Shown piece by piece: positions 24,125 to 25,191 of a stretch of DNA of 35,414 nucleotides. The stretch is from an uncultured Bacilli bacterium (GTDB lineage Bacteria; Bacillota_I; Bacilli_A; RF39; UBA660), in the NCBI GenBank assembly GCA_947591175.1, contig CANQDB010000002.1, positions 1-35,414 of the forward strand, read 5' to 3'. Position 1 is the first letter of the stretch, and each line of letters begins with the position of its first letter. A program made the position numbers and the translations under genes. The notes beneath the pieces are model-generated. The model did not search any database, was not told the origin of the DNA, and was given only the letters and a program-made list of their open reading frames with translations.

Positions 24125-24580
24125 TCAAGCAACTTCACTTTTGACGTTTTGAATATCCGAATTTAAATACAATATTTCATTATTAGTCATATGAACAATT
24201 CTCTGCTCATCAACTCCATATTTTTCTTGATAATATCTATATTCATTTAAAAGATCTTTCAATTTATCTCTAGACAATTTCTTTGTTGTTTTTCTTGCAT
24301 TTTTTAATTCTTCTATCTTATCAATCGTTAATTTTGTGTTTAATTGTGCGTAACTATCTTCATAAATATCTTTTTCGTTAGGATTATTTGAATTTATATA
24401 GTAGTTATACTTGTGATATAACTGATGCATTTTACCTTTTGTCGAATCTAAAGCAATTACTTCTATATAATCTTCTTCGATTTTAGCAATTAACATAGGA
24501 TGCTTTACTTCTGAAACAATATCTATTTGATACTTAACTTTAAGCCACAATACTTGTCCTACTTCAAGTTTATCATTCAT
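24125..24580 (-). CDS. divergent MazF/PemK-like toxin candidate with C-terminal helical extension
   Basis: GQVLWLKV...HPMLIAKIEEDYIEVIALDS and DSYAQLNTKLTIDKIEEL parallel B. subtilis NdoA GDVYFADL...RPVLVIQ and DSVILLEQIRTIDKQRL. Overlaps the upstream gene by 4 nt (ATGA). Confidence 0.5.
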   Translation of the reverse strand: MNDKLEVGQVLWLKVKYQIDIVSEVKHPMLIAKIEEDYIEVIALDSTKGKMHQLYHKYNYYINSNNPNEKDIYEDSYAQLNTKLTIDKIEELKNARKTTKKLSRDKLKDLLNEYRYYQEKYGVDEQRIVHMTNNEILYLNSDIQNVKSEVA

Positions 24581-25065
24581 AAATGAAGTGCTTCTATAAG
24601 TCCTTTGTAGCGATGTTTATATTCATCAATATTTTTTTCTAAATTCATTACTGGGGCATGAAAAGTATCTTTACTTAATTCTATCCATTCTGGATCTTCA
24701 TGGGTTATTTCGATAAGTTCTTCATAAGAAGCATTTATCAAAGAATCGTATATTTTATCTAAGAAAGTTTTTATATTCGAAGGAATACTAACTTTTTCAT
24801 TACGAGCAAACATAATAGGAAAACCTTTTCTAATACAGTCTATAATTGGTCCATTTTCATAAGCAACAAAGTCATCCTTAATTAGTTTCTTTTCATATTT
24901 GGCTAGATAAATGACTTGCGTTAAAAATAAATATTTATTAAGTCTAGCGTTTCCTTCATAAAACTTTCGATGATTCTTAACGACAACATGATTGTTAAAC
25001 AATATTCTTTCAGGATCTTTTGATAAATAATATTTAGCAATAGTTTCTGCGTCCATTTTTTTCAC
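24577..25065 (-). CDS. Panacea/DUF4065 (SocA-like) domain protein, candidate antitoxin
   Basis: ARLNKYLFLTQVIYLAKYEKKLIKDDFVAYENGPIIDCI fits the DUF4065 pattern (L.K.L...Q...... F.AW..GPV). 162 aa. It is the first gene of a two-gene overlapping pair. Confidence 0.6.
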   Translation of the reverse strand: MKKMDAETIAKYYLSKDPERILFNNHVVVKNHRKFYEGNARLNKYLFLTQVIYLAKYEKKLIKDDFVAYENGPIIDCIRKGFPIMFARNEKVSIPSNIKTFLDKIYDSLINASYEELIEITHEDPEWIELSKDTFHAPVMNLEKNIDEYKHRYKGLIEALHL

Positions 25066-25162
25066 CTCTCTTACTTATAATTCTTTTAAAAGCAATTCAA
25101 AGATAGTTATTCAAAATATATGAATTCTTTTTTACAAATGTACAAAAATATTTAGTAAAATT

Positions 25163-25191
25163 ACTATATCATACAAAGGTTTGTAAGTCAA
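25163..25191 (-). promoter_or_regulatory. strong sigma-A-like promoter of the TA-like pair
   Basis: Minus strand TTGACT-17-TGaTATAGT. The leader of about 90 nt contains TTTTTGTACATTTGTAAAAAA (TGTACA palindrome / ACAAA direct repeat), a possible operator. Confidence 0.55.

Follow-up and report, generated by a model that had tools for sequence, protein, structure and literature searches.

A chromosomal panA-panT gene pair from an uncultured Bacilli bacterium: a probable Panacea-type toxin–antitoxin cassette with a MazF-fold toxin

Toxin–antitoxin (TA) systems whose antitoxin carries a Panacea domain (PanAT) have been delineated by three criteria, namely a Panacea gene lying no more than 100 nt from its partner gene, an architecture found in at least two species, and the lack of a conserved operon of more than three genes (Kurata et al. 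2022, PNAS, PMC8832971). The toxins recognized in this way were sorted into 88 published PanT clusters, among which T5, T6, and T25 comprise PemK-domain toxins and toxins whose likeness to EndoA, PemK, or MazF is detected by HHpred only, encoded with −4 or −1 gene overlaps (PMC8832971). The PanA:MazF-like PanT pairs of Pseudomonas moraviensis and Bifidobacterium ruminantium are validated TA systems that inhibit protein synthesis, with complex formation demonstrated for the P. moraviensis pair (PMC8832971). Stand-alone Panacea proteins have further been found to neutralize toxins directly; a role of the domain as a transcriptional autoregulator has been doubted, and MazF/PemK ranks among the commonest folds of the toxins in that network (Ernits et al. 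2023, PMC10440598). This article describes a two-gene locus, panA-panT, in a 35,414-nt stretch of contig CANQDB010000002.1 from an uncultured Bacilli bacterium; the whole of this stretch is referred to as the window, and positions are those of the window. The locus is probably a chromosomal PanAT-type type II TA cassette, in which PanA would be the neutralizer of PanT, a MazF-fold toxin and probable endoribonuclease. It is a further member of a family that has already been published and validated and not a new kind of system, because the pairing of a Panacea antitoxin with a MazF-like toxin has been described and tested in other bacteria.

Measured against these descriptions, the window pair falls within the PanAT group. 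As in the published systems with a MazF-like PanT, a stand-alone Panacea (DUF4065) antitoxin is encoded first, in −4 or −1 overlap with the toxin gene; the likeness of the toxin to EndoA, PemK, and MazF is seen only by sensitive or structural comparison; and the cassette is chromosomal and occurs in variable contexts. In the window, panA and panT share the four bases ATGA (24577-24580), well inside the 100-nt limit. Scanning a single genome for each GTDB species turned up 54 panA-panT loci, all in metagenome-assembled genomes, which are labeled uncultured Bacilli, Tenericutes/Mollicutes/Mycoplasma, Firmicutes, or Clostridia, together with a few bins of Muribaculaceae and Sphaerochaetaceae. In every one of these 54 loci, from different species-level genomes, a PanA homolog is encoded directly upstream of a PanT homolog, so that the architecture extends far beyond two species. 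The gene junction is ATGA (−4) in 36 of the 46 loci that could be parsed and TAATG (−1) in five more, and the pairwise identities of PanA and PanT are correlated (r = 0.90, 41 pairs). No longer operon is conserved: panA and panT are the only window genes common to the related loci, apart from proS in one of them (L033), and 88 of 113 clusters of neighboring genes are singletons, the largest being present in five loci. As judged from these genome sequences, panA-panT is an autonomous, co-inherited cassette, the G+C content of which is 0.26-0.27 in the window, compared with 0.31-0.37 in the flanks.

Where the cassette has decayed, the toxin gene has gone first. Nonsense or frameshift changes break panT alone in four loci (L025, at 4001-4429; L038; L049; L052) and have left both genes decayed in three (L051, L053, L054), and there is no locus in which the antitoxin gene alone is broken. 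These are not intact genes in which TGA is read under genetic code 4, since the in-frame stops include TAA and TAG. An asymmetry of this sort would be expected if the toxin did harm in the absence of its partner.

The assignment of PanA is straightforward. With 38.7 bits (E 2.1e-9), it clears the gathering score of 25.7 for Pfam PF13274 SocA_Panacea, the former DUF4065; residues 42-127 cover profile positions 1-112 of 113, and both of its recognizable motifs, LNKYLFLTQ and FVAYENGPII, lie within this match; phrog_1281 is matched as well (E 3e-15). The NCBIfam model SocA_antitoxin is reached only weakly, with 20.9 bits against a cut-off of 190, and because the Pfam threshold is passed whereas the SocA equivalog threshold is far off, PanA is regarded as a Panacea-domain protein and not as SocA. 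The resemblance to SocAB, the type VI TA system of Caulobacter, thus lies in the SocA/Panacea domain of the antitoxin, whereas the window toxin is unrelated to SocB, and there is no evidence at the window cassette for neutralization through a ClpXP adaptor as in SocAB. Searches of Pfam and NCBIfam detected no helix-turn-helix, no other accessory domain, and no MazE, AbrB, or ribbon-helix-helix match in PanA, and no relative with a solved structure was found among the PDB sequences.

PanT is much harder to place by sequence. Whether used as a single sequence or as a 50-sequence profile, it finds nothing relevant in Pfam, NCBIfam, PADLOC, or the PDB sequences, and with no match to PF02452 PemK_toxin at E ≤ 1 it stands outside that family; its only library match is phrog_13386 (E 1.3e-7), to which no function is assigned there. 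It is nevertheless not an orphan, and its family is a compact one: 417 homologs were retrieved at E ≤ 1e-3 from a collection of 5.8 billion proteins, and when 1.84 billion cluster representatives at 50% identity were searched with a profile, only 138 clusters of the family emerged. An AlphaFold2 model built with 50 homologs as input is confident (pLDDT 85.9, pTM 0.82), and when it was compared with the PDB by Foldseek, the best matches (about 38) were MazF, EndoA, Kid, and CcdB structures or type III toxins, at a probability of ~1.0 and target-normalized TM scores of 0.6-0.69. The top match is CptN (4rmo_A; E 9.9e-4, 171 aligned columns), and others include YdcE/EndoA of Bacillus subtilis (E 1.6e-3), SaMazF, MazF-mt1 and MazF-mt3 of Mycobacterium tuberculosis (TM up to 0.69, target-normalized), Kid, CcdB, and AbiQ. 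In BFVD, the best matches are to phage proteins that carry a PemK or endoribonuclease annotation (E-values down to 5.6e-5, target-normalized TM scores of up to 0.75). At the level of sequence, PF02452 PemK_toxin is matched weakly by five of 49 diverse PanT relatives: relative P0177 reaches 21.6 bits where the cut-off is 23.1, its residues 4-112 being aligned to profile positions 2-101 of 109, and in relative P0130 (15.2 bits) residues 9-111 align to positions 2-103. A separate set of ten divergent relatives, including two of the three that have Arg at position 27, gave no PemK match.

An earlier sequence-only reading of this DNA had proposed a non-canonical PanA-type TA module, with a DUF4065/Panacea-like core in the first open reading frame (ORF) and a MazF-like barrel in the second. 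The first of these is borne out by the Pfam match; the barrel finds support in the matches of the model and in the near-threshold PemK_toxin matches of the relatives; and the module as a whole is supported by the Panacea profile, the fold of PanT, and the co-occurrence of the two genes. The profile searches that this reading had suggested as a check gave a DUF4065 match above threshold for PanA but no PemK/MazF match for PanT itself, and structural comparison of the PanT model yielded matches to MazF, EndoA, Kid, CcdB, and PemK structures (target-normalized TM up to 0.69-0.75). Because the model is confident and its matches lie in the MazF group, and because relatives approach the PemK threshold, the description as a remodeled MazF-like toxin with a Panacea antitoxin is considered right, and the most likely reading of the model is that PanT belongs, as a highly diverged protein, to the MazF/PemK/CcdB fold superfamily.

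This placement can be drawn out by comparison with the MazEF, PemIK, and Kis-Kid modules (B. subtilis EndoA/EndoAI; 1NE8, 4ME7). In the predicted structure, PanT has, like their toxins, an SH3-like barrel with a C-terminal helix, and it retains in collinear order a G-x-[VI] strand 1, an x-P-x-L-[VI] strand 2, and a D-S...T-I-D strand pair; in both cases the antitoxin gene precedes and overlaps the toxin gene. Unlike in those modules, the antitoxin is a Panacea protein and not MazE/PemI of the AbrB/SpoVT type, and the window toxin differs from canonical MazF in failing PF02452, in carrying His in place of the catalytic Arg, in a shorter loop between strands 1 and 2, in an extra loop at 63-75, and in a C-terminal strand-helix extension. 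From the PemK_toxin matches of P0177 and P0130, the MazF domain of PanT can be set at approximately residues 4-112/121. Beyond it lies an extension of about 30 aa (residues ~122-151), modeled as a strand (128-131), a helix (133-139), and a disordered tail. The extension had earlier been put at about 55 aa without a counterpart in NdoA (EndoA); it is shorter than that, since helix 104-121 of PanT corresponds, in the AlphaFold2 model and by hhalign, to the C-terminal helix of NdoA itself.

Residue correspondences were derived by hhalign from the PanT family profile and five MazF-type sequences (MazF/Kid/ChpBK), EndoA among them. In this alignment (E 0.25), G8 of PanT is placed on G6 of EndoA, H27-P28 on R25-P26, S46/T47 on T48, D75-S76 on D72-S73, and T85-I86-D87 on T82-I83-D84; with EndoA alone, 15 columns around the HP/RP pair are aligned (E 0.36). 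The colinearity of the DS...TIDK motif of PanT (DSYAQLNTKLTIDK, residues 75-88) with NdoA, which had been claimed in the sequence-only reading, is thereby reproduced, within an alignment that is itself non-significant, and the NdoA sequence given in that reading proved correct. The catalytic pair of these toxins is taken here to be R25 and T48 of EndoA, equivalent to R29 and T52 of Escherichia coli MazF. Across the 49 diverse relatives, the corresponding positions of PanT are conserved: Gly8 in 45, His27 in 45 (Arg in three), Pro28 in 46, Asp45 in 38, Ser46 in 39, Asp75 in 37, and Ser76 in 42. The same holds for residues toward the C-terminus, including Y114 (44/49), Y117 (40/49), and N140 (44/49). 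The putative active site would thus combine a nearly invariant His-Pro, in the place of the catalytic Arg-Pro of MazF, with D45-S46 at the place of the catalytic Thr, and the conserved (E/K)-D-S-Y-x-Q stretch would be the counterpart of the RNA-binding strand of MazF, with the strand-helix extension as a family-specific predicted addition. His at the Arg position appears compatible with RNase chemistry.

Several observations weigh against the assignment of PanT as a MazF-fold endoribonuclease within a TA cassette. No PemK/MazF match for PanT itself emerges from Pfam, NCBIfam, PADLOC, or the PDB sequences, even at E ≤ 1-10; Foldseek gives the PDB matches modest E-values, from 1e-3 to 1e-2, and a query-normalized TM score of only ~0.5; and the hhalign comparison with the five MazF-type sequences, collinear over 102 columns, is non-significant. 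The canonical catalytic Arg is absent, with His27 in its stead, and CcdB, a gyrase poison of the same fold, is among the fold matches. Finally, the decay asymmetry comes from four loci in metagenome bins, in which assembly errors are possible.

Two of these points bear on the nature of the toxin within an otherwise unchanged PanAT module, in that the barrel could be used as a CcdB-like gyrase poison, or PanT could bind the ribosome or tRNA via its C-terminal extension, rather than act as an RNase. This proposal draws on the CcdB structures among the fold matches (E ~1e-2, target-normalized TM 0.6-0.64), on the His that 45 of 49 relatives carry in place of the MazF Arg, and on the approximately 30 C-terminal residues that have no counterpart in MazF and are nonetheless conserved. 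It is considered unlikely, as MazF, EndoA, and PemK outrank CcdB in both structure libraries (PDB and BFVD), the sole sequence-profile signal in PanT relatives is PemK_toxin, the conserved D-S...Q...T stretch lines up in order with the RNA-binding strand of EndoA, His is able to serve as general acid/base in RNases, and the published MazF-like PanT toxins inhibit translation (PMC8832971).

The top fold match invites a different comparison, with the type III toxins CptN, ToxN, and AbiQ. These are distant members of the same fold group, similar in size (~155-170 aa) and likewise provided with extra C-terminal elements, and the best single PDB match of the PanT model is CptN, with AbiQ also present, so that PanT might be imagined as a type III toxin held by an RNA antitoxin, with the Panacea gene a mere neighbor. 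Here, however, the toxin gene is coupled to a gene for a protein antitoxin, and there is no repetitive RNA antitoxin locus: since panA and panT overlap by 4 nt, an RNA repeat array and its terminator could not be fitted between them, and panA accompanies the toxin gene in all 54 loci and diverges in step with it. Because no tandem repeat array was found near the locus (TRF, minimum score 30, 20948-29697), an RNA antitoxin is excluded, the idea being effectively refuted and the type III arrangement very hard to credit.

The PanAT reading of the locus leads to a simple mechanistic proposal. A single promoter would give rise to a bicistronic mRNA with the antitoxin gene first, and translation of panT would be coupled to that of panA through the ATGA overlap. 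PanA, as a stand-alone Panacea protein without a recognizable DNA-binding or accessory neutralization domain, would, by analogy with the published systems, most likely bind PanT directly and hold it inactive, and PanT freed from PanA would most likely act as a ribosome-independent endoribonuclease that brings translation to a halt. What the analysis shows directly are the domain and fold assignments, the coupling of the two genes, their strict co-occurrence, the autonomy of the cassette, and the order of decay; the toxicity of PanT, its direct neutralization by PanA, its RNase activity, and the catalytic role of His27 we infer.

It has also been considered whether the cassette might mainly serve abortive infection or phage defense, with PanA as a sensor that releases the MazF-like toxin upon infection, rather than simply addiction or the response to stress. 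Panacea has been proposed to have a sensory role, and TA networks have been linked with defense systems (Ernits et al. 2023, PMC10440598), both of the proteins encoded by the cassette match PHROGs (phrog_1281 and phrog_13386, see above), and CptN, the best fold match, and AbiQ are both Abi-type toxins. This role, which would be compatible with the PanAT reading and not exclusive of it, is nevertheless judged improbable, given that there is no PADLOC match and that the ten annotated neighbor genes in the related loci are housekeeping genes, including those for RNase Y, FabG, EF-Tu, trigger factor, an ABC transporter, and a P-type ATPase, with no defense or mobile-element gene among them. A search for carriage on phages or plasmids likewise found no homologs in IMG/VR contigs, GenBank phage records, or PLSDB plasmids.

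The features of the locus and its surroundings are collected in Table 1. The longest ORF for panA begins at a GTG codon (24577-25065, 162 aa), against which the Shine-Dalgarno sequence directly abuts; translation probably starts instead at ATG 25056, since GAGAGG lies 8 nt upstream of this codon and homologs start one codon before the equivalent position. The promoter-like site (25191→25163) matches at 10 of 12 positions, with a TG before the −10 element, and sits in the 135-nt gap that follows the stop of the preceding ORF (25202). A TTGACA/TATAAT-like pair can be seen by eye upstream of the antitoxin gene in many related loci. In the AT-rich window such sites are not enriched (seven found, compared with 10.8 ± 3.1 in shuffled sequences), so that the site is plausible and by itself without statistical weight. 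An operator or palindrome in the panA leader is rejected, as the repeats there are weak AT-rich inverted ones only and none is conserved: no significant inverted or direct repeat is centered on TGTACA, and leader sequences are not conserved across ~50 related loci, where they are also shorter. The ATGA overlap and the promoter-like site (TTGACT-17-TATAGT with its preceding TG) of the sequence-only reading stand; its TGTACA-centered repeat does so only as to the presence of the TGTACA sequence, the repeat being unsupported because the inverted repeats are weak and the leader is not conserved.

Table 1. Positions of the panA-panT cassette and of other features of the window
Feature	Position	Strand	Description
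panA	24577-25056	minus	Predicted Panacea (DUF4065) antitoxin gene; 159 aa from the probable start, ATG 25056
panT	24125-24580	minus	Predicted toxin gene; 151 aa from ATG; MazF/PemK-like fold in the model, C-terminal extension of ~30 aa
Promoter-like site	25163-25191	minus	−35 TTGACT, 17-nt spacer, TG-extended −10 TATAGT
5′ leader	25057-25162	minus	~100 nt; Shine-Dalgarno GAGAGG 25065-25070; TGTACA 25139-25144
T-box-like leader of proS	23943-24099	minus	Sub-threshold match to Rfam RF00230
Second promoter-like site	24079→24051		Between panT and proS
Upstream paralogous ORF	25202-26068	minus	288 aa
Upstream paralogous ORF	26082-26939	minus	285 aa
YfhO-family gene	27004-29706	minus	900-aa membrane protein
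DUF285 ORF	19471-20988	minus	505 aa
81-bp tandem repeat	19645-19841		2.4 copies, 91% matches
34-bp tandem repeat	10727-10835		3.2 copies, 76% matches; between ORFs 9517-10677 (plus) and 11061-12464 (minus)

On the minus strand, the gene order in the window is ybeY, dgkA, cdd, era, recO, a gene for a YfhO-type membrane protein, two paralogous ORFs, panA-panT, proS, and glyQS. The cassette therefore adjoins genes for prolyl-tRNA synthetase (ProRS) and glycyl-tRNA synthetase, in line with the aminoacyl-tRNA synthetase genes noted in the sequence-only reading, and the accompanying statement that no terminator precedes the proS leader also held, no terminator-like hairpin having been found between the panT stop codon and this leader. 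What had been labeled a T-box leader is less secure. The match to Rfam RF00230 (34.9 bits, E 1e-5) falls short of the cut-off of 93, and a scan of the whole window with Rfam at the gathering score gave no T-box; the leader keeps the conserved T-box sequence, of the GGUGGAACCGCG type, and lacks most of stem I. Possibly this is a T-box variant in reduced form. Given the lack of a terminator and the promoter-like site and T-box-like match that follow, read-through from panT would enter a leader with its own control.

A proS-adjacent cassette was found once more. In L033 (3522-6359), a locus of a distant genome, the cassette again lies directly upstream of proS, with a spacer of 500 nt, no T-box match upstream of proS, and different genes upstream of the cassette; identities to the window are 60% for ProRS, 63% for PanA, and 61% for PanT. 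The cassette may have held this place ancestrally, or the site may be one of repeated insertion.

On the other side of the cassette, the two tandem ORFs directly upstream are paralogs with 33% identity (E 3e-35); they have no match in Pfam, NCBIfam, PHROGs, or PADLOC, and no relative of theirs lies beside the cassette in the 54 loci. The YfhO-family protein shows weak similarity to the PgfM1/PgfM2 glycosyltransferases, and together with the two paralogs and the cassette its gene is inserted between recO and the aminoacyl-tRNA synthetase genes. Elsewhere in the window, the 81-bp tandem repeat lies inside an ORF that carries a Mycoplasma-type DUF285 domain, and the 34-bp repeat is intergenic.

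Unlike the MazF-like PanT toxins already published, the window family has no Pfam domain (none is precomputed for the 120 homologs listed of the 417) and comprises 138 clusters at 50% identity; its toxin has His-Pro for Arg-Pro and a conserved extension of ~30 aa, and the members found come exclusively from uncultured gut Bacilli, "Tenericutes," and Clostridia. As a tentative possibility, it may be suggested that the family forms a distinct, unnamed branch of the MazF fold, with no Pfam model and some 140 clusters at 50% identity, in which the His-for-Arg exchange and the strand-helix extension give a different chemistry or RNA target, or in which the extension is a surface for PanA docking or for sensing, and that this branch is specific to uncultured gut Bacilli with reduced genomes (RF39/"Tenericutes"-like) and some Clostridia. 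The family may coincide with one of the 88 published PanT clusters.

The current picture of TA biology is not changed by the window cassette. Its distinctive features, the His in place of the Arg of "RP," the conserved C-terminal β-α extension, and the confinement to uncultured gut Firmicutes, are modest ones. What it would add is a well-populated and unannotated toxin family among the MazF-fold toxins that are neutralized by the hyperpromiscuous Panacea domain, the set of which is extended into uncultured gut Bacilli and Clostridia, organisms whose TA content is poorly charted. Approximately 400 "hypothetical proteins" could gain an annotation in this way. With its His in place of Arg, the PanT family would also be a naturally occurring variant of the MazF active site, open to biochemical testing, and the cassette offers a further case for how a stand-alone Panacea domain recognizes a MazF barrel.

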